Origin: Parcubacteria group bacterium ADurb.Bin159
GTDB taxonomy: Bacteria; Patescibacteriota; Patescibacteriia; UBA2591; MWDC01
Direction: 5' to 3'
DNA length: 64,000 nt
Assembly: GCA_002070355.1 (NCBI GenBank)
Contig: MWDC01000001.1
Coordinates: 67,994-131,993, forward strand
Under the pieces are notes generated by a model, which saw nothing but the letters and a program-made list of their open reading frames with translations, was not told the origin of the DNA and made no database searches. The position numbers were made by a program, and so were the translations under genes. Below, piece after piece: positions 3,741-25,008 of this stretch. Positions within the stretch are counted from its first letter, which is position 1. The number at the start of each line of letters is the position of its first letter.

Positions 3741-3834
3741 GGGGACAGTCCCCAAAAAACGACCCCAAAAAGCTCGCATCAATATTAGCTTTTCTAGAAG
3801 AACTTTTGAATTTAGGGCTGTGAACCCTAAATTT
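3741..3834 (-). repeat. Repeat family A, copy 0 (inverted orientation, divergent)
   Basis: Contains ggggacagtcccc and aatttagggctgtgaaccctaaattt. Aligns with the reverse complement of the other A copies. Confidence 0.6.
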
Positions 3835-4043
3835 ATTTCTTTTAATATTTTTTATTATTTTTGCCATAATTTATTATTTATCCTAAAGTAAAAATGTTTT
3901 TTAACCCTAAAACTTTATTTTACACATTTACATATTCAATTTGCCTTATTTTCAAGATACTCTGTTTTCGAGATTTGTCAATTTATATTTGAGATACAAC
4001 AAAAACAGGGCTTTCCTTGTTTTTACTAATTTTAAAAGGCGCC

Positions 4044-4424
4044 TTAAAAGACGCCTTTGGCTCTAACTATTATGTGTATGCTCGATATTATTGTGAACAT
4101 TAGAGCAGTAACAAAGTAGCTCCAATAGAGAATTCCCACGGGCCAAGACCAAGGAATACCTGTTAACAACAAAAGTTTGGGAAGGAGAAATTTTAGTCCT
4201 CCCCAATATATTCCCACTCCCACAAACGGGATAATCCCTATAAAAGAAATCAAATACAGGATTATCCCTACTAACAGCATTCCTAAAAGATGATCAAACG
4301 TCTTTCCATAAACGAAATAGCCTACCAAGGACATTATTACAACCAATAATCTAGGGAATGACATTATCACCTTTATTTTCCCTATTTTCCCGAGCATACT
4401 GCTGCTACTTTCTTTGCTTTCCAT
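4044..4424 (-). CDS. Hypothetical integral membrane protein
   Basis: 126 aa with multiple hydrophobic helices. Confidence 0.4.
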   Translation of the reverse strand: MESKESSSSMLGKIGKIKVIMSFPRLLVVIMSLVGYFVYGKTFDHLLGMLLVGIILYLISFIGIIPFVGVGIYWGGLKFLLPKLLLLTGIPWSWPVGILYWSYFVTALMFTIISSIHIIVRAKGVF

Positions 4425-4507
4425 GAATACCTCCTTTTTTTTGTTTTTTTTTAATTTTAAAATTTACTTTAATTTTTTAAAAATATTAATATTCCAACCC
4501 CCCATCT

Positions 4508-4714
4508 TCACTTACAACATTTATTTTGATTTTTAATAAAATTTTTTATAGAGCGATTGTATGTTTTCTCTATCTCGGGCGAAAAATAACAAGCAGGCAA
4601 TTCATCGCTTTTTCGATGGTATCTTATGCAATCACAGCATATTCCTTTTCTCGGACATCCAGGATAAGTACAAGGACAATTTTTTGAATTTATTTCTTTT
4701 TTACACTCTGCCAT
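4508..4714 (-). CDS. Small cysteine-rich protein, possibly DUF6485-like
   Basis: CPCTYPGCPRKGICCDCIRYHRKSDELPACYF, nine Cys in 68 aa. Confidence 0.4.
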   Translation of the reverse strand: MAECKKEINSKNCPCTYPGCPRKGICCDCIRYHRKSDELPACYFSPEIEKTYNRSIKNFIKNQNKCCK

Positions 4715-4743
4715 ATTTTTTGCGAATTAAAATATACAAATTA

Positions 4744-5085
4744 CTAACAAGTTAAATGGAAAAAGCCGGTAATTCTTTTCCCTTCTTCTTGTAATTTATT
4801 ATATTTTTTTATTGCTTTACCCGTCTTATCCACGATTAGGTTAATTTGCTTTTCTTTTGCTTTATTCTTAATCTCAGGAGAAACTTTAGCTACACCCCAA
4901 GCTCCTGTGCCGATAATAATTGCCTGCGGGTTCTCTTTAAAAGCGTTTTCTATATCATTCTCATCAATAAAATGAGATTCTTTCCTCCACCAAGAACGTA
5001 TTTCTCCTTTCCCATCAATCTCTACATCTTCTTTGTATATTTTTCCATCAATTTTTATTTGCCCAAAAGAATAATCTTCTATCAT
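4744..5085 (-). CDS. Mth938-like (DUF498) domain protein
   Basis: IIIGTGAWGVAKVSPEI...LIVDKTGKAIKKYN pattern typical of the Mth938 fold. From memory. Confidence 0.4.
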   Translation of the reverse strand: MIEDYSFGQIKIDGKIYKEDVEIDGKGEIRSWWRKESHFIDENDIENAFKENPQAIIIGTGAWGVAKVSPEIKNKAKEKQINLIVDKTGKAIKKYNKLQEEGKRITGFFHLTC

Positions 5086-5115
5086 ATTTAATATGGAAAA
5101 TTTCGCTCTTTTAAA

Positions 5116-5457
5116 TTATAAAAACTTTACAAATTTATTATTTTTATCAACTAAAATAATCTTCGGCTTGATTCGTTTACCGGTAAGTTCAAATCCCATA
5201 ATAATAATTTCATCGCCTTTCTTAATCAAATGGCAAGCCGAACCATAAATAATTATTTTCCCGCTATTTTTTGCTTCTTCTATCACATAAGTTTCCAATC
5301 TCGCGCCGTTGGTATTATCAACTACTAAAACCTTTTCTCCGGCCAATATACCTACTTTTTTTATTAAATCTTTATCTATACCTATGCTTCCCACATAATT
5401 TAAATTTTCTCCGGTCACTATTGCTTTATGAATTTTAGATCTTAATATCCACCTCAT
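5116..5457 (-). CDS. panD: Aspartate 1-decarboxylase proenzyme
   Basis: KIHKAIVTG, the self-cleavage site LNYVG-SIGID, the ETYVI tyrosine, and length 113 aa. Confidence 0.8.
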   Translation of the reverse strand: MRWILRSKIHKAIVTGENLNYVGSIGIDKDLIKKVGILAGEKVLVVDNTNGARLETYVIEEAKNSGKIIIYGSACHLIKKGDEIIIMGFELTGKRIKPKIILVDKNNKFVKFL

Positions 5458-5525
5458 ATTATTAAAAATTGAGAATTTTCTACTTTTAGTTTACTCTTTT
5501 TTTTTAATTTTGTCAATTTAATTTA

Positions 5526-5552
5526 AAAAGGTGTTTCACCAACACCTTTTTG
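5526..5552. terminator. Bidirectional hairpin terminator
   Basis: aaaggtgtt-tcacc-aacaccttt flanked by A/T runs; overlaps the stop of the DUF218 gene. Confidence 0.5.
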
Positions 5553-6123
5553 AAAACTCCCTCCTGCTTCTTTTCTCCCTTTCTTTTCGGGGGATCAATG
5601 ATTCTCCGCGAGAATCGAGAATGGTTAAAATGTTTTTTAAAAATTCAGAGACATATGTTTTCCAGCCCACTGGATACATCAGGGGATGTTTTTTAATCTT
5701 TTTAAACCCATAAGATTTTAAAATAACCGATAGCCTGATCGTGTGCGTCCAATGAGAAATAATGACTATCTCTACCTTATCAATCTTTATCCCTTTTTCT
5801 TGCAGAACCCTCTTCATTTCTTTTACGTTCTGCCATGAATCCAATGACCTGTCTTCAATCCAAATTTTCTCTGGCTGAATTCCATAATTGTCAATTAGAT
5901 AATCCTTCATCAATTTTGAGGCGGGTTCTGTCTGCAAAAAAGAAGGTAAAAATATTCCACCAGTGCAAAAAAGTACATCTACTTTGTTGTTCAAAAACAA
6001 TCTTGCTCCTTCGTCGCACCGAATCTTTGTATCCACGGTGGTCAACATATTTTGCCTTATCACCCTCACCCCATTTACTACTTCATATCCAATTCCGCAC
6101 GAAGGGACAAATCCTATTTTCAT
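5536..6123 (-). CDS. DUF218 (YdcF/ElyC/SanA-like) protein
   Basis: VDVLFCTGG...ISHWTHTIRL core typical of DUF218. Confidence 0.55.
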   Translation of the reverse strand: MKIGFVPSCGIGYEVVNGVRVIRQNMLTTVDTKIRCDEGARLFLNNKVDVLFCTGGIFLPSFLQTEPASKLMKDYLIDNYGIQPEKIWIEDRSLDSWQNVKEMKRVLQEKGIKIDKVEIVIISHWTHTIRLSVILKSYGFKKIKKHPLMYPVGWKTYVSEFLKNILTILDSRGESLIPRKEREKRSRREFSKRCW

Positions 6124-6205
6124 CTAATCCTCCTTTTGTTGTTTAAGTTTTAATTGTTTTTTGATTTAATTATTTGATAATATAACAAAAATTGGAAAAA
6201 AGTCA

Positions 6206-6309
6206 AGCTAAATAAAAATTTAGGGTTCACAACCCTAAATTTGAAAATTCGTCCTAAAAGCCAATGTTTATGCGGGTTTGCGGAGGTCGATTTTTGGGGA
6301 CTATCCCCC
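6206..6309 (+). repeat. Repeat family A, copy 1
   Basis: aaatttagggttcacaaccctaaattt (10-bp stem hairpin) ...ccaatgtttatgcgg... ggggactatcccc palindrome. Confidence 0.7.
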
Positions 6310-6317
6310 GTTTAAAT

Positions 6318-6836
6318 TTATTCCTTGCAACAATCTAAAATTTTTTGGACAACTTTGCCTAATTTAGAAAAAATTGAAACTTTTTCGTTTTCATCTAAAT
6401 TTATTTCCCCATCACTATTTATTGCCTTTACATCTTTAACATCAATTAAATTTAAATTAATCCCCCAAAAAATATTCCACAAATCATAACTTTTTTTAAA
6501 CAATTCTTCTGCTTCCTCTTTTCGCCCTTCATTTAATTTTTTAGTGCCCACTTCCATAAACCTCATAGAAGCACTGAGTAAATGTTTAGATATACACCAT
6601 ATTTCTCCTTCGGGATTTTTAACAATTTGGGCTAAATATTTTTTTCTTAATTCTCTTGTCTCATTTAAAATTTCTAAATATTTTTTATCGTTTGTTTTAT
6701 TATATGTAAAAAATAAATGCTCTTCAAGGCTAATTAAATTCATAATCGCTACTGCCAAATCTTCTTTAGAAGAAAGATCTATTTTGTCGCTTTCTTTAAA
6801 ATCTTTAATTTTTTTAAATAATTCTTCTAATTCCAT
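6318..6836 (-). CDS. Hypothetical protein
   Basis: 172-aa ORF with no recognisable motifs. Confidence 0.4.
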   Translation of the reverse strand: MELEELFKKIKDFKESDKIDLSSKEDLAVAIMNLISLEEHLFFTYNKTNDKKYLEILNETRELRKKYLAQIVKNPEGEIWCISKHLLSASMRFMEVGTKKLNEGRKEEAEELFKKSYDLWNIFWGINLNLIDVKDVKAINSDGEINLDENEKVSIFSKLGKVVQKILDCCKE

Positions 6837-6839
6837 ATA

Positions 6840-7277
6840 TTAATAACAAATTAAAGCCATAATAAGGCTGCCCAAAATTAATAAAGACAAGGGTAAAATA
6901 ACTTTTTGATAAGGAAAAGCCGCTTTGCCCCCTCTTTTAGACCTTAAATATTTATCCCATAAAATCCCCATAGCGGCTATTATAACACCAACAATGGAAC
7001 CAAAAATTAAACGATTTATTCCTAATATAGTCATACATCCTTCCAGTAAACCGATATAATGAAATGGGATAAAAACCAAAAGCCACCATGCCAAAGTTAA
7101 AAGTGCTAATCCTATTAATGGTTTTTTTGTCTTTTTTTTATATAGCCAACGCCAAGTCCAAATAGCTAAAGCTAAAATCAGGGCTCCAATCCAAATACCG
7201 GAAATAACATCATCAACTTTAAGCCACCGTGACAGGCCTACGCCAGCGGCTATACCTATAGTGCAAACAGGACACAT
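6840..7277 (-). CDS. Hypothetical membrane protein
   Basis: 145 aa, four hydrophobic segments; abuts the previous gene. Confidence 0.4.
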   Translation of the reverse strand: MCPVCTIGIAAGVGLSRWLKVDDVISGIWIGALILALAIWTWRWLYKKKTKKPLIGLALLTLAWWLLVFIPFHYIGLLEGCMTILGINRLIFGSIVGVIIAAMGILWDKYLRSKRGGKAAFPYQKVILPLSLLILGSLIMALICY

Positions 7278-7321
7278 AATTTAAATAATTTTTCAATTTT
7301 ACTACAAGGGGGGTCAACAAA

Positions 7322-7543
7322 TTAAAGCTCTTCTTTCTGGAATTTTATTTCCTGCGTTTCATCTAATTTTCTAAGAAGTTTAGTTAATTCTGCCACATGC
7401 TCTTTTTCGTCATTTCTAATATGACTTAAAATTTTTTTGATTTCTTCTTCACTCGCTTCATCTATATGCTCTTGATATTGATTAATGGCTCCCAATTCTC
7501 CTATTAAATCCTCTCTTAAATTTTTTAAATCTCTATTGTTCAT
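7322..7543 (-). CDS. Small ferritin-like/rubrerythrin-like two-helix protein (tentative)
   Basis: Paired ELGAINQYQEH and EKEHVAEL motifs (E..E..H-type half-sites). Confidence 0.3.
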   Translation of the reverse strand: MNNRDLKNLREDLIGELGAINQYQEHIDEASEEEIKKILSHIRNDEKEHVAELTKLLRKLDETQEIKFQKEEL

Positions 7544-7625
7544 ATAATATATGTTTTATATTTTAACGACCTTTTATTTATTTTATATTATAACAAATTT
7601 TAATAATTAGCAAAATAAAAACCAA

Positions 7626-9113: not shown

Positions 9114-9153
9114 TTAATAAATATTAATTATCTAAATTAAAACTTTTGACATC

Positions 9154-10299
9154 CTATTCCTCTTCAGCGGAAACACATTTATGGGCTAGGCATTGAACAG
9201 CAGGGGCAGGAACGCAGAGGTCAATCATTTCGCTGCATTGCTTGCTGTAAATATCCATTTTTTTGTAAAACTGGTCCTTGTCAACTGCTTTGTTTATAAA
9301 ATGATAACAACCCCAATCAATATACTCTCCTCCTAATATTAAAATATCACAATCAGAATCGGTTTCGCAATAATTGGCATTTTTAATATCGTTCTCAATA
9401 TTATTATACATTTCTTTACAAGATAAATTTTCAAAAAATGATAGTTGCTGAACGGTTAAGGAATGTTTAATTTTATCAAATTGTTTTATTAAAGACGCAC
9501 GGTCAAATTCTGAAATAGTGCCTTCCGGATAATTAGCAATATTAGTGGAATGAATAAAATAACGCACCGCAAGACATGGATGAGTCCCCGGCAATGCCCA
9601 AACTTTTTCTTCATAAAAATTGCCTGCTGCTCCTTCGTTTGTTGAAGCGAAAGAATAATAAATGCCATTTTCATTTATAGTTTGAACATCGGTATTACCA
9701 TAAATAAACAATCCAGCATTGCAATTTCTAACTGCTGGAATTATTTCTACTGAAACTCCGGTATCATAGCTTGATAAATTAGTGCCAAGAGCAAGGGTTT
9801 CCGGAATAGTAAATTTGACACCTGATATATTTTTATCCGGCCCAAGCCCTTGATATTTATAAGAAGTATCTACTAAATAATCAGCTGGATAGCGAATAGT
9901 AAAACCTGCTGCTTCGTCTAAATAACTATTAGGTAAGTCATTTACATACTCAATTCGACTGTAACAATTTTCTTGACTATTAGCTTCATCAAATCCTTGA
10001 ATATTTTCGCAGGCTTCTTTAGCTTTTTCTTTATCATAAGTAGAAACAACCTCTGCGATATATTCAAAACAACTATCTTTCTTGGGAACATTTTCCATTT
10101 CTGCGCATAATTGCATAGCCTTTTTGAAATCGGATTTTTCTGAATCGGAATTTATTGTCTCCATCATTTCATAAAAATTACAGATATTTTTTCCGTAAAT
10201 CAATTTACATTTAAGACGAGAATTTAACAACAGCCAAACGCCCCCTATTAAAAACAGCGCGATAAATAAAATAATAATAATTTTTTTATTCTTGCTCAT
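9154..10299 (-). CDS. Membrane-anchored/secreted Cys-rich hypothetical protein
   Basis: N-terminal TM (IIIILFIALFLIGGVWLLL) followed by a Cys-rich extracytoplasmic region. Confidence 0.45.
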   Translation of the reverse strand: MSKNKKIIIILFIALFLIGGVWLLLNSRLKCKLIYGKNICNFYEMMETINSDSEKSDFKKAMQLCAEMENVPKKDSCFEYIAEVVSTYDKEKAKEACENIQGFDEANSQENCYSRIEYVNDLPNSYLDEAAGFTIRYPADYLVDTSYKYQGLGPDKNISGVKFTIPETLALGTNLSSYDTGVSVEIIPAVRNCNAGLFIYGNTDVQTINENGIYYSFASTNEGAAGNFYEEKVWALPGTHPCLAVRYFIHSTNIANYPEGTISEFDRASLIKQFDKIKHSLTVQQLSFFENLSCKEMYNNIENDIKNANYCETDSDCDILILGGEYIDWGCYHFINKAVDKDQFYKKMDIYSKQCSEMIDLCVPAPAVQCLAHKCVSAEEE

Positions 10300-10380
10300 T
10301 TTTCAAATTTATTTAATTTTTGTTTTTAAATCTTTTAAATATTACTTTTAACTTTTCGGCGATGGCTGTATAACTTTATA

Positions 10381-10407
10381 TTATAAAATTTTATAAAGTT
10401 CGTCAAC
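10381..10407 (-). promoter_or_regulatory. Candidate sigma-70 promoter (minus strand TTGACG-N15-TATAAT) inside the extended repeat
   Basis: Reverse complement reads TTGACGaactttataaaatttTATAAT, about 85 bp upstream of the 9154..10299 start. The same motif recurs at 22699-22725. Confidence 0.4.
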
Positions 10408-10429
10408 ATCTAATAATGTATAAAAAGAA

Positions 10430-10522
10430 AAATTTAGGGTCCACAACCCTAAATTTAAAAATTCGTCCTGAAAGCCAATGTTAATGCAATGTTTCTGTGG
10501 TCTCTTTCTGGGGACTGTCCCC
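10430..10522 (+). repeat. Repeat family A, copy 2. An ~90-bp extension upstream (10340-10429) is shared with copy 5.
   Basis: Near-identical to copy 3 (12098-12201). Confidence 0.75.
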
Positions 10523-10580
10523 AAATAGTGTGCCTCTTGATAGTGTCCTGTTTAGCGCCCCCATTCGTTTATTTCTTTTT

Positions 10581-11729
10581 TTAGGAAAATTTCAATGCTT
10601 CTAAAATTACAGAGGCAACTTTATGAGGTTTAATTAGTTTCAAGCAGGTCAATTCTTTACAACTTTTCTTCTGACAATTTTTACAAGGCAAACTACAGTA
10701 AAAGAGATGTAGCCTTTTTGTGAACGGTCGCCAGCGAACAGGATCATTGGCAGCCGAAAAGATAGAAACAACCGGTATATTTAAGGCTGCAGCTAAATGC
10801 CCGGGACCAGAATTTACACCAATAAAAATTTTAGCCCAGGCAATTAAAGCGGCTAAATCAGATAGATTGGGATTAATAACCTGAATTACATTAGAATCAT
10901 TAATACCTTTGGTTATTTGCTTAATCAAGTTTTCCTCACCTTTACCAACAACCAAAATAATCTTTACTGGGGCAGAATTGAGTAATTCCTTTATTAATTT
11001 ATGCCAATGGGCAACAGGCCACATTCTAGAAGGATCCCTGCTGCCGGGATGCATTATAATTAACACATCATTTTTGCGAACACCCTTTCTAAATAAAAAA
11101 TTATTAGCCCATTGCCTTTCTTCGGCTAAAAGGGGCCAATTTAATTTAATATTTTCTTTCTCTATTTCAATGCCTAATAGCTCCAGAAGATCCAAATAGA
11201 TAAAAATTTGATGCTGCTTTTCGTTCAAAACAGGCACATCTGTTAAAAAGTTACCTAAACCTCCGTGATCATAGCCAATTCTTCTTTTTATTCTAGCCAA
11301 AAAAAGTAAAAGAATAACTAAAGGATCGCCCTTCGTATCAAAGGATAGATCATATTTTCTTTTCTTTAAGGTTTGAATTAATATAAAAAAAGAGATAAAA
11401 CTCTTAAAAAAATCTCCCTTTTTTCTCTTTTGGTTTCCCCAAAAAGGCAAAAAGCTAATAACCCTGTTTACGCTTTTTATTCTTTTAAAAACATTTTCTG
11501 AATATGGATTAGTTAAAACATCTATTTCCGCTTTTTCAAAACGACTTTTTAAAATACTTAAAAAAGGAGATAGCAATATAGCATCTCCTATATGACCAAA
11601 ATTAACTATTAAAATTTTTGAATAATAATTTTTGTTAACAACTTTTCTTTTGGGAAGCCATTTTAGAAACCAATCAATAATTGAAAAAAGAATGGTCAAC
11701 CCTCGTTTTTTGTAGACGTATTTTACCAT
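10581..11729 (-). CDS. Glycosyltransferase family 9 (heptosyltransferase-like)
   Basis: GHIGDAILLSP, GVNSGPGHLAAALNIPVVSIF, and a Cys-rich C-terminal tail. Confidence 0.65.
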   Translation of the reverse strand: MVKYVYKKRGLTILFSIIDWFLKWLPKRKVVNKNYYSKILIVNFGHIGDAILLSPFLSILKSRFEKAEIDVLTNPYSENVFKRIKSVNRVISFLPFWGNQKRKKGDFFKSFISFFILIQTLKKRKYDLSFDTKGDPLVILLLFLARIKRRIGYDHGGLGNFLTDVPVLNEKQHQIFIYLDLLELLGIEIEKENIKLNWPLLAEERQWANNFLFRKGVRKNDVLIIMHPGSRDPSRMWPVAHWHKLIKELLNSAPVKIILVVGKGEENLIKQITKGINDSNVIQVINPNLSDLAALIAWAKIFIGVNSGPGHLAAALNIPVVSIFSAANDPVRWRPFTKRLHLFYCSLPCKNCQKKSCKELTCLKLIKPHKVASVILEALKFS

Positions 11730-12097
11730 CTTATAATTCTTACAAAGTAAAATTACAATGTCCTATGAAGCGTCACTAAGCAAGTCTTAAATTTCGAACA
11801 AAGCGAGAAATTAAGGTTCTGCCAAGTAAAGCGAAGTGCGGCACTTATTCAATTATCTCTAATCGGTTAGGAAAATTTGTTAATATCCTAAACAATATTT
11901 ACCTGCTCTCTAAAGATAAATCAATGCCAACTGCTCCTTTTATTTTATTTAGGCCGCAGTCTACATCTAAAATTTTTAATTTTGAATTTTGTCTAATTAT
12001 AAACAACAATCTCAATTGACAAAATTCAAATAATCTTGGCGAAGTTTTTCCACTGGTCCATCGCCACCTATTATTTTACTATTCATCGCAAAATTGT

Positions 12098-12201
12098 AAA
12101 GATTTTAAAAATTTAGGGTCCACAACCCTAAATTTAAAAATTCGTCCTGAAAGCCAATGTTAATGCAATGTTTCTGTGGTCTCTTTCTGGGGACTGTCTC
12201 C
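12098..12201 (+). repeat. Repeat family A, copy 3
   Basis: About 90 nt identical to copy 2. Confidence 0.75.
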
Positions 12202-12225
12202 GACTCCTTATATGTCCCCGACTCC

Positions 12226-14124
12226 TTATACAACAAATTGACTATTATATAAAGAAGCATAAAAGCCATTTCTGGAAATCAGTTCTTCATGTGTCCCCTG
12301 CTCAACAATACTGCCATCACGAATTGCTAAAATTAAATCAGCATTTCGAATAGTGGAAAGCCTGTGAGCAATAATAAAACTTGTTCTACCTTTCATCATT
12401 TTATCCATTGCTGCCTGAATAATTATTTCTGTACGGGTATCAACAGAGCTTGTTGCTTCATCTAAAATTAACATTGGAGCATTAGCCAGCATTGCCCGAG
12501 CTATAGTTAAAAGTTGTTTTTCACCCTGAGAAATATTATCGGCTTCCTCGCTAATTTGCATTTGATAACCTCCTGGCAGAGTACGAATAAAATGATCGGC
12601 ATAAGCTGCCTCTGCGGCTTTAACTACTTCTTCATGAGAGACGTTTTCCTTGCTATAAGCAATATTCTCTTCAATTGTGCCATTAAATAGCCAAGTATCC
12701 TGCAATACCATACCAAAAAGTTTTCTTACATCAGACCGCTTCATTTTTCTAATATCTATCCCATCAATTTTAATAGCTTCGCTATTAACATCATAAAAAC
12801 GCATCAAGAGATTGACTATAGTTGTTTTGCCTGCTCCAGTTGGTCCTACAATAGCAACTTTTTGGCCGGGCTTAATAGTAACGTTAAAATCTTTAATAAT
12901 CATTTTCTCGGGCGTATAACCAAAAAACAAATGGATAAAATCTACTGCGCCCTTTACTTCTTTTAAAATAACAGGATTAGGAGTTTCTGGCGCTTCATCT
13001 GCTTCTTCTAAAAACTCGAATACTCTTTCTGCAGCAGCTGCTGTAGATTGAAGCACATTAGCAATGCTAGCAGTTTGGGTAATAGGGCGAGTAAATTGAG
13101 TCATATATTGTATAAAGGCCTGAATACTACCAATGCTCATCCTCCCCTGAATAGCCAACCATCCTCCCAGTACTGAAATAGCAACAAATCCACAATTCTC
13201 AATAAAATTTATTATAGGATGAAGAAGACTTGAAAAAAAGTGAGATTTCCAAGCGTTCTCATAAAGTTTATTGTTAATTCTATGAAAAATAGAGATTGAC
13301 CTCTGCTCGCCATTAAAAGCTTTCACTATTGTATGACCGGAAAACATCTCTTCAATGTGGCCATCAATTTTCCCTAATGAAACTTGGTGATTAAAAAAAT
13401 ATTTTTGCGATTTTTTAACAACAAAACTTGTTAAAAAGAAACTAAGAGGCAAAATTACGACTGCCACTAATGTTAGCTGCCAACTTATTATAACCATCAT
13501 AACAAGAATACCGATAATAGTAGTAGTGGCACTAACAATTTGAATTAAACTCTGGTTAAAGCTTTGGCTTACTGTATCTACATCGTTTGTTACACGACTC
13601 AAAATATCACCATGGCTTCCTTGGTCGAAATAACGCAATGGTAATTGATTTATTTTTTGAGAAATATTCTTTCTTAAATTAAATGCTACTTTTTGAGTAA
13701 CCCCTGCCATAATCCACCCCTGAAGATAGCTAAACAAGACGTTTAATAAATAAATTCCAATTAGTATTTCTATTAAACGAATAATTGCCGCAAAATCGAT
13801 ACCACTCCTTTGAGAAAAATTGGAACCTCCTGTCTGTATGCCCGCAACAATTTTATTAGTAATGTCCCCTAATATTTTAGGAGTAATAACGCTAAAAATA
13901 GTACTAAGTATTGCAAACACTAAAACTAAAATAATTGAAACATGGTATGGCTTTAAATATTTTATAAGTTTACGCATCGTGCCTTTAAAATCTTTGGGCT
14001 TTTCAACTGCTCCACGCATTCCTCTACCACGACCTCTGCCCATACCAAAACCACCTGGCCTTGGCCTTTTAGGAGGTAAATTAGTTGGAAAATTATTTGG
14101 TTTTGAAACAGATTCTTTAGACAT
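12226..14124 (-). CDS. ABC transporter permease/ATPase (exporter half-transporter) with an N-terminal Gly/Arg-rich tail
   Basis: Six TM helices followed by an ABC NBD (GPTGAGKTT, LSGGQ-like signature, Walker B). N-terminus is GGFGMGRGRGRGMRG. Confidence 0.8.
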   Translation of the reverse strand: MSKESVSKPNNFPTNLPPKRPRPGGFGMGRGRGRGMRGAVEKPKDFKGTMRKLIKYLKPYHVSIILVLVFAILSTIFSVITPKILGDITNKIVAGIQTGGSNFSQRSGIDFAAIIRLIEILIGIYLLNVLFSYLQGWIMAGVTQKVAFNLRKNISQKINQLPLRYFDQGSHGDILSRVTNDVDTVSQSFNQSLIQIVSATTTIIGILVMMVIISWQLTLVAVVILPLSFFLTSFVVKKSQKYFFNHQVSLGKIDGHIEEMFSGHTIVKAFNGEQRSISIFHRINNKLYENAWKSHFFSSLLHPIINFIENCGFVAISVLGGWLAIQGRMSIGSIQAFIQYMTQFTRPITQTASIANVLQSTAAAAERVFEFLEEADEAPETPNPVILKEVKGAVDFIHLFFGYTPEKMIIKDFNVTIKPGQKVAIVGPTGAGKTTIVNLLMRFYDVNSEAIKIDGIDIRKMKRSDVRKLFGMVLQDTWLFNGTIEENIAYSKENVSHEEVVKAAEAAYADHFIRTLPGGYQMQISEEADNISQGEKQLLTIARAMLANAPMLILDEATSSVDTRTEIIIQAAMDKMMKGRTSFIIAHRLSTIRNADLILAIRDGSIVEQGTHEELISRNGFYASLYNSQFVV

Positions 14125-14127
14125 ATT

Positions 14128-15873: not shown

Positions 15874-16144
15874 TACAATAAATTAATCTATTAGTTTAAT
15901 AAAAATTTCTTTCTTCGTCAACAATGTTTATAGTAAAAAAATAACTCCACAAATAGTTCAGCGGTAGGCAAAAATTCGAAAAGTTATCCAAAAAGATTGC
16001 CTCGCTTCGCTTGGGCTCGGCAGAAGTAAATTCTCACCGCCTCAAATAAAACAAAAACAAAACCCTTGCCAAAATATGGTAAGGGGTCAATTTTCTCCGA
16101 ATTGTGAACAATATTAGAACAACTATTTCTTCTACTAATAATAA

Positions 16145-16237
16145 AAATTTAGGATCCACAACTCTAAATTAAAAAATTCGCCCTAAAAGCCAATGTTAAT
16201 GCGGTATTCTCGTAGTCTCTTTCTGTAAACTGTCTCC
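16145..16237 (+). repeat. Repeat family A, copy 4 (left flank of the defence island)
   Basis: aaatttaggatccacaactctaaatt...ccaatgttaatgcggtattctcgtagtctctttctgtaaactgtctcc. Confidence 0.7.
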
Positions 16238-16431
16238 AAATGCGTCCCCGAATGCAAAATTATAAAATTATTCTTCTGTTTTTTGTAAAATCAATCTCAT
16301 AATTAAACCTGATAAATATAAAAACGCTTCCGTATCTTCCAATTAAAAAGACAAAAGCAATGATAACAAAGATTTTCAAACCCCACTTAAAAGCTAATGT
16401 CTCAACAAAACCTTCTAAACCATAAAAACAA

Positions 16432-17124
16432 TTATTTCTTTTGATTAGTTGTATAATCACATTTCGGGTAATTAGAGCATCCGTAAAATTCTCCAAATTT
16501 GCCAGTTTTTTTCACTAAATTTCCGCCACAGCATGGGCAAATTCGAGACGCTTCTCTTGCCTTATCTTTATCCTTTTTAGCCATTTTGATATACCGAATA
16601 AGTTTGTATCCATCTATAAGTTCAATTGGCTTATCTTCAGCAAATTTCTCAGCTTCAAGTGTAAATTTATTTGTGGTAATAAAATATGCCTTTCCATTAG
16701 CAATATGGTCAGCCAAAGCACCATAGAAATCTCTGACATCGCCAACCGTTACCTCTGAGGTTATAAACTTTTTGCATTGAATGTAGCTTTTTACTCCGTC
16801 TTTTTCAATAATAACGTCAATGCCTCCGTCGTGCGATCCGCCGACTGCTTTAGATTTGTAGCCAAGCCGCGAAAACAAATCGGCAATATAATCCTCAAAT
16901 TCCGATGGCTTCATGCCACGAAGCCATTGCAATAGATCACGATCCGAACGCCATTTTTCTCCTTTTCTGAATTTTCGGCGAATATGCCAATTATCAATTT
17001 CCAAATTAAGCCAATAAAAGAATAATTTCATAACAACAATCGCCAATAAAACTGCCCAAAGCGGCCATAGCTTCCATAAAATCGGTAGTAAATTTTTAAT
17101 TATTTCCCAGAAATTAATTTGCAT
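16432..17124 (-). CDS. Membrane-anchored Mrr-cat (PD-(D/E)XK) restriction-endonuclease-like protein with a C-terminal topoisomerase-type C4 zinc ribbon
   Basis: N-terminal TM helices, then DLFSRLGYKSKAVGGSHDGGIDVIIEKDGVKSYIQCKKF (Mrr_cat signature D..D..QCK), then CPCCGG...CSNYPKC. Confidence 0.65.
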   Translation of the reverse strand: MQINFWEIIKNLLPILWKLWPLWAVLLAIVVMKLFFYWLNLEIDNWHIRRKFRKGEKWRSDRDLLQWLRGMKPSEFEDYIADLFSRLGYKSKAVGGSHDGGIDVIIEKDGVKSYIQCKKFITSEVTVGDVRDFYGALADHIANGKAYFITTNKFTLEAEKFAEDKPIELIDGYKLIRYIKMAKKDKDKAREASRICPCCGGNLVKKTGKFGEFYGCSNYPKCDYTTNQKK

Positions 17125-17130
17125 ATAATT

Positions 17131-20100
17131 TTAGTTTATAATCTCCTCCAATCTCCAAAAAGTGCTTCCACCTTCACGAATCAAATCGTCGATAAGTTTA
17201 TAAGTATCACCTTTTGTTTCGGCATTTTCATAGAGAGTCTTAATTGCCCCAAACCATTCCTCGTCATACATAAATGGCATGCGCATTTTACCACCTCGCA
17301 CATCACCTTCAAGTAAAGAAAGACGGGCAATCTCCAACGTATCTTTAGGTGCAGCTTTAGCCAATTCATTGATAGACTTAGTGAGAGCGTAATCCCATTC
17401 CAAAACACCCTTAGTTTTTTCTAAGGTCGCTTTTATTTGTCCAGCTAACCAGGCTGGTTCAAAGATTTTTTTCTCAAGATTCATCCAAAATCCAAACGCA
17501 ACAAATAGCTTCGGGTCGTCATAATTCTTAAGCAACCATTCCCAAAATTCAGTTAATCTTTTTTTAATTGCTGGGTCTTTTTTCAACTGCTCATTTACAC
17601 GATCATCATCGCCAGAAATGAACATCCGCCCGATAAAACTGATAAACTTGCTTTGCCGTTCAACATCTCGCTTCCAGAATTTCTTGAAAAGAGAATGATC
17701 AAACCCGAATTTTTCATGATAGACAACAAACGCCAACGCCAAATGAACAGCTATTCCTTCCTTTAGTTCTTTGAAATATTTGCGTTTTGAGTCCTCGTTG
17801 CCAGTCAAACTTAAGCCACGCTCATATAATTTTTGGAATTCTTGATCAAAGAATATTTCCTCATAAAGATTATTAGCAAGATATCCTTCCCAAGCAGCAA
17901 GATAAAGGTGTTTTTTAGTCGCTTCTTCTGGAAAAATTTGAGTCAAAAGCCCATGTATCCAATCTCTGTCACGGAAGTAGAAAGATGGTAGATAATATCC
18001 AAACATAAACATTAAGGCACGAGTATCTTCTTTTTTTAAGACTCTCTCATAGAGCTCCTTAATGTCTACGCTAATTTTAATCTTATCATCTTTTGAAAAT
18101 TGCTTTCCGTCTTGGTAAACAAACAACACAAAAGCCTGAAACGCCCGACCACGCACCGAATTAATCGCCATCGTAAACGGATCACTAACATAATTTTCTT
18201 CCTTATCGCCAGGGGAATGGGTCTTTATCGTCGCTGTTCCTAGCTCTTCGTCTTGTGGTTCTGGATCGGGGTATACTAAAAGATAGCTGAGAATCTCGAA
18301 AAGCTGACTGCGGTATTTGGAGAAATCTATAAGAATTTTACCGTCGTTTTCACTCAATAATTCTTGCAGGACATCCGTCATCACCGAGTGCACTCCAGTC
18401 CAACTCAAAAGCCATGCGTCAAACTTCTCTCGTTCCCTGATTTTATGGTTAAAGGCTTTTGCAATACCCGAATCCTTAATAGCAATAAAAACTTCTATCA
18501 GTTTATCCCACTGGATATCTGCCGCCTTTGTTTTGTCAGCACGTATAGCTTCTTGAATGCCTCGAAAAAACGAGTAAGTATAATGCTCGTCGAGAACATC
18601 CCTCTCAAAAAATAAACTGGCGTTCTGGATATAATCCTGTAATCGCTTAGCAATATCAACACGCAATTGTTCCTCTACGCCTTTAGCATTTAAGGGATTC
18701 AAAAAATCATCACTTGTGTTCTCTTTGCTCAAAGCTTCTGGCTTCCAGTCATTTCTTAATTTTTTGGCAATGTCAGCAATGGAAAGTTTACTAAATTCCT
18801 CTTGTGAAACTGCAGCTCTTGGTTTTACAAAACCGCTCACTATTTTTCCAATGGACGGTTCGGGTTCAAAAGTAGGATCACATTTTTTACCGAATATTTT
18901 TTCACAATCTTCTTTTTCTTCTGAAGTCAAAGAGTCATAAATACTGGAAAGAATCTGCCAGCCATCGCGCCTATACCATTGTTCTTCTTTTTTATCTTCA
19001 CGACTTTGTCCAAAATGCTTAAAGACATTCGATACATATTCACGCTGATAATCGAAATTGAGGACATTAAAGCTCTGTTTAAGGGCTTTCTTGTACTCTG
19101 TTCCAGATTCAATCTCATAATAATGTTTACCATCCTCCATCACCTCAAATAATTTAAAAAAGGACGCCTGTAATTCTGCCTGAAAAGCAACGGGACACAA
19201 ACTCAAAACAAAAAGACGCAGTCGCCACATCAACCTGCTTTCTGGTAAGGTTTGAATATATTTCTTATAAACCTCTCTGACCAATTCTGATTTGTCACAA
19301 TTATTGCCAATTAGTCTTTGACTGAGTGCTTTAATGGTCACTACTAAATCTTTGACGTTTTCTTGATCTGAATAATGTTTTTCATCGCCCAATTCCAAAG
19401 AAAAAAAATCAACATCAAAAAGATAAAAAGGGTCATGAATCGGAAATACTTCATTCTTCTCGGCGTCTTCGCCCAAACGCACGATTGCCGCCATCGTTCT
19501 TGTTGTAATCTCTAATGCTTTTTCAAGATATTGATCGCCTACAGCCACTAAATACTCAAAGACTTTCGTGTAAGAAAGGTCTGTGAAATAAAAAGGATTA
19601 TCCGATGGATAATCACGAGAAGTTGGTTTTGTTTCTTCTTTTGCTCTCACAGTAAGCACTGCTTCGGCAAGGACCAAGATATTCTCATAATCCTTAGCAG
19701 CGGCAAGTGTTTGGAATATTTTTTTATAATCAAATCCCCATTGATTAAATACGCTCATCAACCGCACCCAACCATCATCACGAATTTTCGGCACTATTCT
19801 CGCTAACTGCTCCGCTGGCAGAGAACTGCAAATTCTCAAAAATTGATCGACAATTTCGGGATTAAAATTATCTTTTGGGATAGAAACCGAAAGCATAATA
19901 TCTACCACTTCTTTCGCTTTTTTCTCCGCTATTCTTACAAGATAATTCAGTTCTGGGGTTGTTCGATATCCATATCTCGTTGGATCGTCGACTTTCTGTT
20001 TAATCACATCTAAGAGCCCATTATTCCAAAGCCAATCAAGCCAATTCTCATCTGCTTTTGTAAAAAAATATTGTCGTGCATCAAGATTTAAACCAATAAG

Positions 20101-20145
20101 TTCTCGAATTTTCTCTGGATCAAATTTTGCTGATTGTTTATCCAT
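17131..20145 (-). CDS. Large (1004 aa) hypothetical protein; no ATPase, nuclease or other recognisable motif
   Basis: Long uninterrupted ORF packed 5-6 bp from its neighbours in the R-M/Mrr operon. Predicted mostly alpha-helical. No Walker A. Confidence 0.6.
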   Translation of the reverse strand: MDKQSAKFDPEKIRELIGLNLDARQYFFTKADENWLDWLWNNGLLDVIKQKVDDPTRYGYRTTPELNYLVRIAEKKAKEVVDIMLSVSIPKDNFNPEIVDQFLRICSSLPAEQLARIVPKIRDDGWVRLMSVFNQWGFDYKKIFQTLAAAKDYENILVLAEAVLTVRAKEETKPTSRDYPSDNPFYFTDLSYTKVFEYLVAVGDQYLEKALEITTRTMAAIVRLGEDAEKNEVFPIHDPFYLFDVDFFSLELGDEKHYSDQENVKDLVVTIKALSQRLIGNNCDKSELVREVYKKYIQTLPESRLMWRLRLFVLSLCPVAFQAELQASFFKLFEVMEDGKHYYEIESGTEYKKALKQSFNVLNFDYQREYVSNVFKHFGQSREDKKEEQWYRRDGWQILSSIYDSLTSEEKEDCEKIFGKKCDPTFEPEPSIGKIVSGFVKPRAAVSQEEFSKLSIADIAKKLRNDWKPEALSKENTSDDFLNPLNAKGVEEQLRVDIAKRLQDYIQNASLFFERDVLDEHYTYSFFRGIQEAIRADKTKAADIQWDKLIEVFIAIKDSGIAKAFNHKIREREKFDAWLLSWTGVHSVMTDVLQELLSENDGKILIDFSKYRSQLFEILSYLLVYPDPEPQDEELGTATIKTHSPGDKEENYVSDPFTMAINSVRGRAFQAFVLFVYQDGKQFSKDDKIKISVDIKELYERVLKKEDTRALMFMFGYYLPSFYFRDRDWIHGLLTQIFPEEATKKHLYLAAWEGYLANNLYEEIFFDQEFQKLYERGLSLTGNEDSKRKYFKELKEGIAVHLALAFVVYHEKFGFDHSLFKKFWKRDVERQSKFISFIGRMFISGDDDRVNEQLKKDPAIKKRLTEFWEWLLKNYDDPKLFVAFGFWMNLEKKIFEPAWLAGQIKATLEKTKGVLEWDYALTKSINELAKAAPKDTLEIARLSLLEGDVRGGKMRMPFMYDEEWFGAIKTLYENAETKGDTYKLIDDLIREGGSTFWRLEEIIN

Positions 20146-20150
20146 ATTAC

Positions 20151-20756
20151 TTATTTACCTCCATTTATATCTTCTATTAGCTGAGGATTTATTCTCAAAA
20201 CCTCATCAAGCATTTGATGCACATCAAGCTGCCTTGTCAATGCCTTATTCATAATTTTTTCAAACTCCACTAAAAGTTTTTCAAACTCAACCTTATTAAA
20301 AGAAGAAAAATCAAAATTTTTATCCCATTGAGGATCAACTCCATGATGCGTTATATCATTAAGTTTTTTCCACAGAGGTTCTACTTTACTGCTATAGAAA
20401 TTTTTATCAAAACTTTCATTAGAACTTTCATCAAAATTTTTATCAACCGTTACAGAGCCAAAATTTTTAAACGCATCCATTCTCTTACTTGAAACTTGTT
20501 TCACCTGAATACTTAAGAATGGATAAAGAATCTCTCGTAAGGAGTTTGCCGCTTGGGCAATACGATCGGGATTACTTTTACATTCTTCCCTAATAGCAAA
20601 AACGGCACCTCGAAACATATCTGAAGGCTTTATTTTTAGTCCTCCTCGCTCATGCCACTCATCTAGGCGTCTACATAAATTTTCTTGTCCATCGGTTAAA
20701 CGCACGGGTGGGAGAGCATTATTTCCTATAGATTGTAGTGATGCATCACCGCCCAT
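20151..20756 (-). CDS. Hypothetical 201-aa protein with a DKNF(D/Y)xSS triple repeat
   Basis: ORF-track protein with 3-5 bp spacing to the restriction endonuclease upstream and the 1004-aa ORF downstream. Confidence 0.5.
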   Translation of the reverse strand: MGGDASLQSIGNNALPPVRLTDGQENLCRRLDEWHERGGLKIKPSDMFRGAVFAIREECKSNPDRIAQAANSLREILYPFLSIQVKQVSSKRMDAFKNFGSVTVDKNFDESSNESFDKNFYSSKVEPLWKKLNDITHHGVDPQWDKNFDFSSFNKVEFEKLLVEFEKIMNKALTRQLDVHQMLDEVLRINPQLIEDINGGK

Positions 20757-20759
20757 AAA

Positions 20760-21665
20760 TTATATATCTCTCAAGATATTCCTTAAAAAACCTTTTTTGA
20801 TGAAATTAATATTTAAGACATAATCCATTTGTTCAATTGCCTTCCTGATTTGATTTTGTCCTTGTCGCCAGCCATTTCCATCGGTAATCCAAACAAATTG
20901 CCAGCCACTATTTTGGAGCTCTCTTTGCCGATTTATGTAGGCATCAACAATCTCTTGAGGTTTTGAACCCTGCCCGCTGTAAAAATTAACTTCCATTGAT
21001 AGAAGTTTTGTTCCTTTTTTGATCGCAAAATCGGGAGTTCTATACCGGAGTTTCTTCGGGATTTTTACACCGCGTTCTTCGAATTTACTGAACTTCCCCT
21101 TAGGGAATATCTCAATATTCTTAAATTCTTTGGTGATATTTTGAAGTTCTTCCTCTACCACTTTTTCCATAAAACTACCACTTCGATTCTTACGTGCATT
21201 GCTATCCAAACCTACTTCAACCCCTAAGAGATAATCGTTAAGAACTCGAATGATTTTGAATAACTCTTGGATACCACTTTTTTTTACAAATTGAATAAAT
21301 TTCTTGATGTCACTTGGGGTTAAATCTTTTGAACAATCAAAACAACATACTTGATTTTTGCTTATATCCTCTAGTACATCAAATTTCTCATCACGCATTG
21401 CAACAAGAAGTGGTAAAACCCTTGCTGTCTTAGGGTATTCTGTTAAAATTTTCTCTAAATCTTTATCAAAATTTTTGGATTGAGTAAGTGTTCCCAAAAT
21501 TCCAATTTCAACTTTGTATTTCTCTACATTTGATTTAACCTTTTTCCAATTTACAAAAAAATCGTAAGTGCGATTAGTAGATAATAGTGAGCCAATAAAT
21601 GCTTCGTTAATCTGCTCAATATTAGTAAAACCAAAAAATGATTTATATGTTTGTATTTTTGCCAT
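20760..21665 (-). CDS. Type II restriction endonuclease, DpnII/MboI family (predicted GATC specificity)
   Basis: GVEVGLDSNARKNRSG and EVNFYSGQGSKP...WITDGNGW...LNINF align with R.DpnII motifs recalled from memory. Confidence 0.7.
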   Translation of the reverse strand: MAKIQTYKSFFGFTNIEQINEAFIGSLLSTNRTYDFFVNWKKVKSNVEKYKVEIGILGTLTQSKNFDKDLEKILTEYPKTARVLPLLVAMRDEKFDVLEDISKNQVCCFDCSKDLTPSDIKKFIQFVKKSGIQELFKIIRVLNDYLLGVEVGLDSNARKNRSGSFMEKVVEEELQNITKEFKNIEIFPKGKFSKFEERGVKIPKKLRYRTPDFAIKKGTKLLSMEVNFYSGQGSKPQEIVDAYINRQRELQNSGWQFVWITDGNGWRQGQNQIRKAIEQMDYVLNINFIKKGFLRNILRDI

Positions 21666-21670
21666 ATTGC

Positions 21671-22513
21671 TTAAATTAATTTAATAAACATTTGCTTGCG
21701 CTTAATTAAGTCTTTGAGTCGCTTTTTTGAAAGTTCAAGATATTTTTTCTCATTATCAATCCCTATAAATTTTCTATCGTATAGAATAGCAACTAAACCA
21801 GTAGTAGAGCTCCCTGCGAAAGGATCGAGTATTATGTCGCCAGGATTTGTGCTTGACAGAATAATTCTTTTCAAAAGCTCCATTGGCTTTTGTGTGGGGT
21901 GTTTACCAAATATTTTTTCTTCTGGCTTGGGAGTCCCTATTGCCCACACCGAACGCATTTGTTTATTTTGCCGATGGATAAGGTCGTTTCTAAACGCACG
22001 CATCTGCTCGTAATTGAACACGTGCTTTGCTTTCTTTTCTTTACGTGCCCACAATAATGTTTCGTGGCTGGCAGTAAAATAACGGCAACTTAAATTGGGA
22101 GAAGCATTGGGTTTATACCAGGAGATATCATTTAAGATATGATAACCGCTTAATTGAAGTGCGTAACCACATTGATAAATTGAGTGATAAGTCCCACTAA
22201 TCCAAATTGTACCGTAAGGTTTAAGAACTCGACGGCAAGCTTGAACCCAAGTAATATGAAAATCTAAATCCTTTTGAAAACCTTTGCTTTTGTCCCAATC
22301 TCCCTTATTAACACTTACACGTCTGCCAGCGTGAACGCTAAAACCACCATTAGAAAGATTATACGGTGGATCAGCAAAAATCATATCAATCGAATTGTCT
22401 GGAAGCTGTTTCAAAATCGACAGATAATCTGAACAGTATAAAACAAAATTACCTTCAGAAAAATAAGGTTTTTTCTTGATAGAAGATAGAACTTTTTGAG
22501 AATTAGTTTCCAT
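21671..22513 (-). CDS. Beta-class N6-adenine DNA methyltransferase, M.DpnA (DpnIIB)-like
   Basis: Motif IV IFADPPYNLSNGG precedes motif I DPFAGSSTTG. Strong similarity to M.DpnA through ...NLSCRYFT...KHPTQKP.... Confidence 0.8.
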   Translation of the reverse strand: METNSQKVLSSIKKKPYFSEGNFVLYCSDYLSILKQLPDNSIDMIFADPPYNLSNGGFSVHAGRRVSVNKGDWDKSKGFQKDLDFHITWVQACRRVLKPYGTIWISGTYHSIYQCGYALQLSGYHILNDISWYKPNASPNLSCRYFTASHETLLWARKEKKAKHVFNYEQMRAFRNDLIHRQNKQMRSVWAIGTPKPEEKIFGKHPTQKPMELLKRIILSSTNPGDIILDPFAGSSTTGLVAILYDRKFIGIDNEKKYLELSKKRLKDLIKRKQMFIKLI

Positions 22514-22698
22514 AAATATGTCTTTTTTTCAACTTGGATTTATTAGTTTATTTTTTCCTGTCTACTGTTTATTATAACAAATAATTCCTAAAAATATAAT
22601 TAAAGAGGCCTTAATTTTTGAAAAATTATTGAATTGTCTTACTGATTAATTTCATTTATATTGCTTTTAACTTTTCCGTGGTGGTCGTATAACTTTAT

Positions 22699-22725
22699 AT
22701 TATAGAACTTCATAAAGTTCGTCAA
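22699..22725 (-). promoter_or_regulatory. Candidate promoter of the defence operon (minus strand TTGACG-N15-TATAAT)
   Basis: Same promoter-like sequence as 10381-10407; lies in the extended copy of repeat A upstream of the MTase gene. Confidence 0.35.
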
Positions 22726-22751
22726 TATCTAATAATGCATAAAAAATAAAA

Positions 22752-22843
22752 AAATAGGGCTCACAACCCTAAATTAAAAAATTCGTCTTAACAGCCAATG
22801 TTAATGCGGTATTCTCGTAATCTCTTTTTGAGGACTGTCCCCA
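22752..22843 (+). repeat. Repeat family A, copy 5 (right flank of the defence island); the extension at 22660-22751 is shared with copy 2.
   Basis: aaatagggctcacaaccctaaatt...ccaatgttaatgcggtattctcgtaatctctttttgaggactgtcccc. Confidence 0.7.
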
Positions 22844-25002: not shown

Positions 25003-25008
25003 TAAAGT

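Follow-up and report, generated by a model that had tools for sequence, protein, structure and literature searches.

The stretch of DNA considered here, a 64-kb window on contig MWDC01000001.1 of Parcubacteria group bacterium ADurb.Bin159, harbors six copies of a repeat of about 95 nt, termed repeat A, and raises the question of what kind of element this repeat is. A preliminary description had offered two interpretations, an element resembling a miniature inverted-repeat transposable element (MITE) or a repetitive extragenic palindrome (REP), or a family of small structured RNAs. The first is supported by homology of repeat A to inverted units at genes for REP-associated tyrosine transposase (RAYT)-like proteins in related Patescibacteria; the second found no support. 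In all likelihood the copies belong to a generally known type of miniature mobile DNA and are not a new RNA gene, and repeat A is probably a RAYT-associated, dispersed intergenic repeat of this Parcubacteria genome that resembles REPs and bacterial interspersed mosaic elements (BIMEs). Patescibacteria (candidate phyla radiation, CPR) have tiny, streamlined genomes and are usually regarded as repeat-poor. No publication on REP/RAYT systems in Patescibacteria was found; the only co-mention concerned an archaeal K07491 gene.

The copies were located with a repeat finder, which returned five direct 95-nt copies and an inverted one, and with an nhmmer profile built from the six copies, which recovered all of them in the window with E values of 7e-27 to 6e-32 (Table 1). 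The earlier coordinates agree with these to within 10 nt, and what had been described at this locus was confirmed: both palindromes are present; every copy is intergenic; c1 is reversed with respect to the other five and the orientation relative to genes is not fixed; and two copies, c5 and c6, bracket a defense island. The arms of hairpin A measure 11-12 bp, and the hairpins of c5 and c6 are degraded. Pairwise identities range from 70 to 86%, except for c3 and c4, which are 99% identical. Hairpin D (GGGGACNGTCCCC) occurs 10 times in the window at two or fewer mismatches, compared to 0.44 occurrences expected from shuffled sequences. The copies are real and chance is far exceeded. Two half-copies (D2a and D2b), one weak relic and isolated D hairpins had previously been overlooked. 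An open reading frame (ORF) of 575 aa (2140-3867) runs across c1, but it is a gltX call extended too far at its N terminus. The GluRS domain does not start until residue 61, the canonical start MVTRIAPSPTGFMHIG lies at 3684 with hairpin D of c1 56 nt upstream of it, and the ~61 spurious N-terminal residues read through this copy; the same call is found in GCA_022705795.1.

Repeat A is a composite of an inner hairpin A and an outer unit of ~75 nt. Hairpin A (AAATTTAGGGTYCACAACCCTAAATTT) is an A/T-rich palindrome of 27 nt and is followed by an A-rich stretch (AAAAATTCGTCC). The outer unit consists of the 11-nt motif WWTRTTNATGC, which is the best conserved unpaired segment, a linker of ~22 nt that varies by subtype, and hairpin D, GGGGAC-N-GTCCCC (13 nt, 5-6 bp). 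In copies of type 1 the linker itself repeats, in degenerate form, 13 nt made up of the 5' arm of D and the bases upstream of it. Only the 3' ~50 nt of repeat A are common to the full copies and the half-copies; D2a and D2b have TTTT after their terminal hairpin D. Single copies fold modestly better than shuffles (z -1.5 to -3.0), a signal that originates from the two palindromes. Among 27 aligned family members hairpin D is paired in 99% of cells, with one compensatory change, and RNAalifold retained D alone; beyond the two palindromes no significant covariation was detected, the observed level being that of shuffled alignments. A middle hairpin (AAAGCY/RGNTTT around the 11-nt motif), which by eye showed a few apparent compensatory changes, was rejected, as 68% of its cells were paired without excess over shuffles and RNAalifold dropped it. 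The conserved unpaired motif and the nearly invariant palindromes fit a protein-recognized DNA site better than an RNA.

Table 1. Coordinates of repeat A copies, related elements and bordering gene modules within the 64-kb window.
Feature	Position	Strand	Remarks
Copy c1	3741-3836	-	E 7e-27; hairpin D 3741-3753, hairpin A 3808-3834
Copy c2	6214-6308	+	E 3e-30; hairpin A 6216-6242, D 6296-6308 (GGGGACTATCCCC)
Copy c3	10428-10522	+	E 6e-32; hairpin A 10430-10456, 11-nt motif AATGTTAATGC 10477-10487, D 10510-10522
Copy c4	12107-12201	+	E 2e-31; hairpin A 12109-12135, D 12189-12201
Copy c5	16143-16237	+	E 2e-27; both hairpins degraded (GGATCC..ACTCT; GTAAACTGTCTCC); left border of defense island
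Copy c6	22748-22842	+	E 2e-28; degraded hairpins; right border of defense island
Half-copy D2a	36340-36437	+	E 0.003; 3' module CCCTTTATTGATGCGGGTTTGCGAAGGTCGGAAAAA + GGGGACTGTCCCC, different weak 5' palindrome
Half-copy D2b	45017-45114	+	E 2e-4; 95% identical to D2a
Isolated GGGGACTGTCCCC hairpins	36145-36157 and 36196-36208		within 51-nt tandem duplication
Weak degenerate relic (uncertain)	32088-32161	-	E 0.02; GGGGTCAGACCCC + CCCTTTATTTAAGCGGG
Tandem 18-nt duplication after c4 (D 3' arm + flank)	12196-12231	+	GTCTCCGACTCCTTATAT / GTCCCCGACTCCTTATAC, 16/18
Tandem 12-nt duplication after c5 (D 3' arm + flank)	16232-16255	+	GTCTCCAAATGC / GTCCCCGAATGC, by sequence reading
Extension on hairpin-A side of c3	10339-10427	+	shared with c6 (22658-22747), 86% identity
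GT9 module between c3 and c4	10523-12106	-	GT9 glycosyltransferase gene 10581-11729 + upstream region
Defense island between c5 and c6	16238-22747	-	Mrr-like type IV restriction endonuclease, Dsr1-like 1004-aa protein, 201-aa unknown protein, DpnII-type restriction endonuclease + methyltransferase

The identity of the outer unit is indicated by its occurrence at transposase genes elsewhere. On contig L028 a 200-aa protein with a Y1_Tnp domain (Pfam E 3e-14) is encoded between two units in inverted arrangement (nhmmer E 6e-10 and 4e-8). Homologues of this protein, likewise of ~200 aa, form 347 clusters at E<=1e-5, and 1470 clusters at E<=1e-20 were obtained with a second query. Several proteins of this clade carry the JGI label 'REP element-mobilizing transposase RayT', and those named at NCBI belong to Patescibacteria or Parcubacteria. 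The flanks were compared at 11 distinct loci, several of the contigs being from other samples. Units are present in inverted orientation on both sides of the gene at nine of these loci, with D outermost and 68-110 nt from the gene, and on one side only at the remaining two. They align to positions ~22-98 of the window profile (E 6e-10 to 3e-6). Judged by these alignments, the 3' ~75 nt of repeat A is homologous to the units flanking RAYT-like Y1/HUH genes. In addition, hairpin D varies with the transposase: the three RAYT lineages in this small sample have three D variants, GGGGAC/GTCCCC at most loci, GGTGAC/GTCACC in L032 and L033 and GGTGCC/GGCACT in L047, and the palindrome is kept by changes on both arms.

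The proteins themselves point in the same direction. The HUH motif NHxHL is invariant, and seven of eight proteins possess a tyrosine aligned with Y115 of E. coli TnpA-REP (4ER8), which we take to be the catalytic residue. TnpA-REP was the only significant match of the clade profile in the PDB (E 2e-5). REP_Tyr_transpos was the best NCBIfam model for four proteins and was covered over its whole 146-position profile. On these profile matches, the proteins are a distant clade of RAYTs. Gene neighborhoods of the RAYT genes are conserved in L031, L032 and L033, as would be expected if the gene were inherited vertically. The RAYT gene of L047 lies 10 kb from the ProRS gene, on an Athens1014_10-like Parcubacteria contig; Parcubacteria Athens1014_10 is related to the source organism, their ProRS proteins being 70% identical. 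No further copies of the unit were found in the surrounding 20 kb, and the repeat has not spread around this gene as it has in the genome of the window. The downstream flank of the same gene (L047 10679-10761) contains a 42-nt tandem duplication (98% identity) of linker and hairpin (GGTGCCTGGCACT).

The inner ends of the RAYT flanks (TTTTTAAAAATGGGACGATTTT and AAAATCGTCCCAAATTTTAAAAA) are similar to both arms of hairpin A. On related contigs, units form inverted doublets in which hairpin A is central and a D hairpin lies at each outer end; doublets and mosaic arrays are found in L010, L013 and L015. Because of the similarity between the inner ends and the arms of hairpin A, the doublets look like REPtrons without the gene, and the 95-nt copies of the window may represent halves of such gene-less doublets. 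In the Patescibacteria metagenome-assembled genome (MAG) UR.bin241, a C-terminal RAYT remnant of 35 aa (57% identity, E 9e-10) is located ~45 nt upstream of a D2-type unit, which shows the decay of a RAYT gene that left the unit behind. This MAG also contains units nearly identical to the half-copies of the window.

The repeat is not confined to the window. A search for the hairpin-A pattern gave 17 matches in metagenome contigs, 11 of which are strain variants of the window and six other loci (after rpoC, beside pheT, after topA, before rpmE/prfA and after def); no match was obtained in 185,579 GTDB species representatives or in the viral contigs, phage records and plasmids that were scanned. 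Copies occur at no fewer than five unrelated housekeeping loci on related contigs from the same samples. At these loci the modules are shuffled, with hairpin A joined to other linkers or D directly beside A. A second pattern, combining D with the 11-nt motif, had 12 matches in GTDB. Members of the family were found in UR.bin241, in a Ca. Kuenenbacteria MAG and on three contigs (L027, L028 and L029) of the MAG binchicken_co38_723 (CAZVCF01), which has a low G+C content of 37-40%, is labelled 'uncultured Gammaproteobacteria' and also encodes a RAYT. Six of the 12 matches (Firmicutes, Deltaproteobacteria, Phycisphaerae, Bacillus, Acidaminococcales and Telluria) are probably due to chance, as they show little similarity beyond the pattern.

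Repeat A was compared to REPs and BIMEs, REP doublets forming hairpins (REPINs) and REPtrons of E. coli, Pseudomonas, Stenotrophomonas and Marinomonas (PMC8266576, PMC3116915, PMC5581495). Like these, it is a short, palindromic, intergenic repeat in multiple copies, six full and two half ones. In relatives a gene for a ~200-aa HUH/Tyr transposase lies between inverted repeats that vary with the transposase lineage, inverted doublets and mosaic arrays occur, and copies are often positioned 3' of genes and are terminator-like. In contrast to classical REPs, repeat A lacks a conserved GTAG-type tetranucleotide, the unit is ~75-95 nt long, and an unpaired 11-nt motif 22 nt from D and an additional A/T-rich palindrome are present. 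The hosts are Patescibacteria and not Proteobacteria. Repeat A probably works like a REP/BIME-RAYT system, and the classical definition of a REP fails on the adjacent tetranucleotide and on size.

Several observations weigh against this assignment. GTAG/CTAC is not conserved in the copies, the single GTAG, in c5, being a private substitution; the 5 nt preceding hairpin D are not conserved in the 27 family members, and (T)ATGC, 22 nt from D, is the sole short motif that is conserved. The unit is longer than classical REPs, and D comprises only 5-6 bp. Four of the proteins score 59-72 bits, below the equivalog cut-off of 80 for NCBIfam NF047646, and histidine replaces the putative catalytic tyrosine in P0001; in the RAYT of the Gammaproteobacteria-labelled MAG the position aligned with the TnpA-REP tyrosine is occupied by histidine. 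The label of this MAG is unexplained and could reflect taxonomic mislabelling, a binning error or horizontal transfer. No RAYT gene was detected in the window or on same-species contigs by tblastn against all same-species loci, and the named RAYT matches included none from ADurb.Bin159; it is thus possible that the source genome has no active enzyme. Empty sites (orthologous loci lacking the repeat) were not found, and transposition itself is therefore only presumed. Finally, the six copies crowd into 19 kb and the remaining 41 kb of the window contain none, which is not a uniform dispersal. In favor of a RAYT-associated repeat, sequence comparison shows that repeat A is homologous to RAYT flanks, that relatives have a REPtron-like arrangement, that D covaries with the RAYT lineage, that copies are dispersed, that strains differ as described below and that a RAYT gene has decayed and left its unit behind.

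TnpA-REP and the enzymes of the insertion sequence (IS) family IS200/IS605 act on single-stranded hairpins (PMC8266576). A RAYT would presumably act on the copies of this genome in a comparable manner. It would recognize the folded, single-stranded unit with hairpin D as structural determinant, and cut and rejoin DNA near the outer border of D, thereby seeding new copies; doublets without a RAYT gene and single units would persist as non-autonomous elements. As side effects, hairpin A with its T-run could terminate, as an intrinsic signal, transcription of the minus-strand gene upstream of it, and near-identical direct copies could offer homology or cleavage sites for the gain, loss or swap of modules such as the GT9 gene and the defense island. 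Secondary roles as terminator and as breakpoint of module exchange are plausible. Of the eight copies that could be oriented, seven run the same way relative to the inferred direction of replication. This agrees with a strand-specific mechanism, with gene orientation as a confounding factor. The tandem duplications after c4 and c5, each comprising the 3' arm of D and its flank, are located at the proposed border. Related duplications of this arm with 6-12 nt of flank occur in L003, L015, L028 and L030, and a three-unit version related to that of c5 is present in L003. Altogether such duplications were found at 9 of 98 distinct D flanks (>=80% identity), compared to 0.7% of control positions. 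This is consistent with repeated cutting and rejoining, or repair, at the border of D.

Differences between strains coincide with the repeats. Contigs that are 98-99.9% identical to the window are present in several digester metagenomes and in GCA_022705795.1. Contig L014 (3.3 kb, ~98% identical) leads from the left flank of c3 through one repeat into the right flank of c4 and thus lacks 1679 nt, i.e. the GT9 gene and one copy; its junction reads GTCCCCAA followed directly by CTCC, 2 nt past hairpin D. The form with the GT9 gene is found in L007 and L049. In L003, which is 95% identical over the ABC-transporter gene, other defense genes (a type I-like methylase-specificity fusion and a PDC-S02 nuclease) take the place of the island, and similarity to the window ends just past tandem GTCYCC-AAATGC units. 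In L017, the 3' half of the c2 orthologue is swapped for another subtype between flanks of 98% identity. These differences suggest that the GT9 module and the defense island were gained or swapped at the repeats. Misassembly of L014 and L003 is possible, because both contigs are short and cross a repeat, and homologous recombination between copies would yield the same products as a site-specific event. An exact look-up of the GT9 protein sequence gave no record. A contig end in the same-species MAG GCA_022705795.1 (JAKJDU010000003.1; L050 1-346) carries a GT9 gene that breaks off at window position 10976 and continues into a fragment with 78% identity to the window's RarA/MgsA-like gene (58684-58930); this represents either a genuine rearrangement or a chimera at the contig end.

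An exchange of modules could be brought about if direct pairs of copies acted like the ends of IS200/IS605 elements, with a RAYT, or recombination primed just 3' of D, moving the DNA between them. Repeat A shares several features with IS200/IS605 elements (PMC8266576, in part) and their transposase-less derivatives, palindrome-associated transposable elements (PATEs): a Y1 HUH transposase, subterminal hairpins at both ends, and neither classical terminal inverted repeats nor a fixed target-site duplication. The insertion signature is also alike, since the additional DNA of the window relative to L014 starts 2 nt 3' of D and ends with the same sequence. Nevertheless, the clade profile matched TnpA-REP and no IS200/IS605 TnpA structure, the match to the NCBIfam IS200 model was marginal, the RAYT gene lies between inverted copies of one unit instead of distinct left and right ends, and there is no sign of a multi-copy RAYT gene. 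Such an activity of the copy pairs is unlikely. If it were true, ultra-small CPR genomes would possess a cassette exchange based on a domesticated transposase, with defense islands and cell-envelope genes as cargo; the tandem duplications of GTCCCC and flank would be scars of this exchange, and the units more than selfish passengers.

The same observations could mean that the copies are cassette boundaries, recombination sites comparable to integron attC or pdif sites, and that the region from 3.7 to 22.8 kb is a cassette array. Six copies lie within 19 kb, five of them co-oriented and each after the 3' end of a gene block; the nearly identical c3 and c4 enclose the module that is missing in L014; and c5 and c6, which share the variable segment GCGGTATTCTCGTA as well as 6 nt after D (AAATGC), flank the island that is replaced in L003. 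Cargo that varies between strains, defense genes included, and is bordered by direct repeats located 3' of gene blocks is generally known from attC sites, clusters of attC sites lacking integrases (CALINs) and pdif modules. However, Pfam scans of all genes in the window revealed no transposase, recombinase or integrase, and repeat A does not have the R''-L''...L'-R' organization of attC, its structure consisting of separate local hairpins. One of the 'cassettes' would contain the essential ProRS gene, and single copies are also located beside rpoC, topA, def and pheT. The junctions in L014 and L003 may be misjoined, and ordinary homologous recombination between 95-nt direct repeats accounts for the same products. 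The gene adjacent to c6 (22920-23684) was considered as an integrase and rejected, as its product contains an HExxH-type motif, gave no Pfam hit and lacks features of recombinases. It is thus distinctly improbable that the copies are cassette boundaries. The classical MITEs of bacteria, such as Correia/NEMIS of Neisseria, RUP and BOX of Streptococcus and ERIC, are likewise structured intergenic repeats of ~100 nt, some with promoters or terminators, and polymorphic between strains. Repeat A differs from them: its termini do not form matching inverted repeats, since hairpins A and D are unlike each other in sequence, a constant target-site duplication is absent and no DDE transposase is linked to it. 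No direct repeats surround the copies; the duplications are tandem, one-sided and 12-18 nt long.

Alternatively, repeat A might be a regulatory module of the host that combines a terminator with a 3'- or 5'-untranslated region element and was spread by recombination or gene conversion and retained by selection, without a transposase. Along the gene-sense strand, c2-c5 show the order stop codon, D, linker, motif, hairpin A with T-run and next gene, with D 9-58 nt past the stop codon in c2-c4; the distance of 9 nt separates D of c2 from the stop of the convergent gene 6318-6836. A terminator scan scored hairpin A and its T-run as terminator-like on this strand in c2, c3 and c6. The segment shared by c3 and c6 extends ~90-135 nt beyond hairpin A and, on the minus strand in c3, includes the promoter-like sequence TTGACG-17 nt-TAATAT ahead of gene 9154-10299, with a counterpart at 22725-22697 in c6. 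The swapped half of the c2 orthologue in L017 would be expected from gene conversion. On the other hand, c1 is inverted, so that its terminator-like strand faces no gene, and c6 sits in a divergent promoter region, with the methyltransferase gene (start 22513) on one side and gene 22920-23684 on the other. Hairpin D is no terminator in the full copies, because in all six of them T-rich sequence precedes and A-rich sequence follows it, which is the wrong way round. Moreover, the inverted pairs at RAYT genes and the covariation of D with the RAYT lineage are left unexplained. A purely host-derived regulatory module is therefore very unlikely. A sigma-70 promoter within the 95 nt was also considered and rejected, as the hexamers are weak and inconsistent and the only convincing promoter-like site is that of the c3/c6 extension; a short peptide or upstream ORF in the variable part was rejected because translation of the individual copies gives no conserved peptide. 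A family of small structured or cis-acting RNAs, for which the slightly better folding of single copies and the D-TTTT ends of D2a and D2b, resembling those of a terminated small RNA, could speak, is highly improbable, as Rfam returned no match for the copies at the gathering threshold or at E<=10, the folding signal is that of the two palindromes, the middle stem fails, no convincing promoter is present, the orientation relative to genes varies and conservation at the sequence level resides in the unpaired 11-nt motif.

Interpreted as a RAYT-associated repeat, a previously unrecognized sequence is now tied to a large clade of RAYT-like genes. It may offer a second, very different substrate, with no GTAG, a short hairpin and a distal motif, for the unsolved question of how REPs are disseminated. 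The repeats are also indicated as breakpoints of strain-level variation in gene content, defense islands included. Furthermore, they are of practical use in annotation, as they account for the over-extension of ORFs such as gltX, called at 575 aa, and murG with its C-terminal tail: the final 16 codons of the MurG-like ORF 45064-46077 lie within half-copy D2b. Other elements also reach into genes or their borders. The stop codon of the ABC-transporter gene sits in the second unit of the 18-nt duplication after c4, and D2a is placed immediately behind the stop of gene 36434-37747. The 51-nt tandem duplication (36133-36215) copies the start codon region of xseA together with a GGGGACTGTCCCC hairpin and has a truncated third unit in between; the hairpin is positioned 9 nt upstream of the xseA ATG, where a ribosome-binding site is expected.

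The window has a G+C content of 29-41% (2-kb windows) and a uniformly negative GC skew, and almost all genes are encoded on the minus strand. Housekeeping genes include those for GluRS, ProRS, a TyrRS/TrpRS-type enzyme, RpoD, DnaG, MurG, MraY, FtsW and others, and the only Rfam matches in the window at the gathering threshold are five tRNAs. The encoded ProRS shows 100% identity to the ProRS of ADurb.Bin159. In the defense island, the 1004-aa protein (17131-20145) is without Pfam domains and matched the C-terminal two-thirds of the PADLOC Dsr1 model (E 8e-19), and the Mrr-like nuclease is of the Mrr-like/Zn-ribbon type. The divergent gene next to the island (22920-23684) encodes 254 aa with the HExxH-like motif HECCH. 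Further along the window, a 52-nt direct repeat (24008-24059 and 24958-25009, 94% identical) that contains a terminator-like hairpin encloses a segment of ~900 bp with one unknown gene of 167 aa (24230-24733). This segment is situated directly 3' of tRNA-Asn (25009-25084) and looks like a small integrated element or its remnant; ~700 bp are additionally present there in strain contig L005. At 56294-56367 on the minus strand ARAGORN predicted a tRNA with the four-base anticodon cgaa and no amino acid (Rfam tRNA 51 bits), which may represent an unusual anticodon loop or a miscall. A 200-aa protein encoded at 32483-33085 matched the Pfam family Tad4, a type I Thoeris inhibitor (E 3e-29), here on a bacterial chromosome, and its gene adjoins a gene-free, relatively GC-rich spacer of 600 nt (31864-32482) that had no Rfam match. 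ORF 60646-61377 is without a Pfam match and contains an internal protein repeat, encoded by a 66-nt segment that recurs at an interval of 99 nt (60750-60914, 82% identity).

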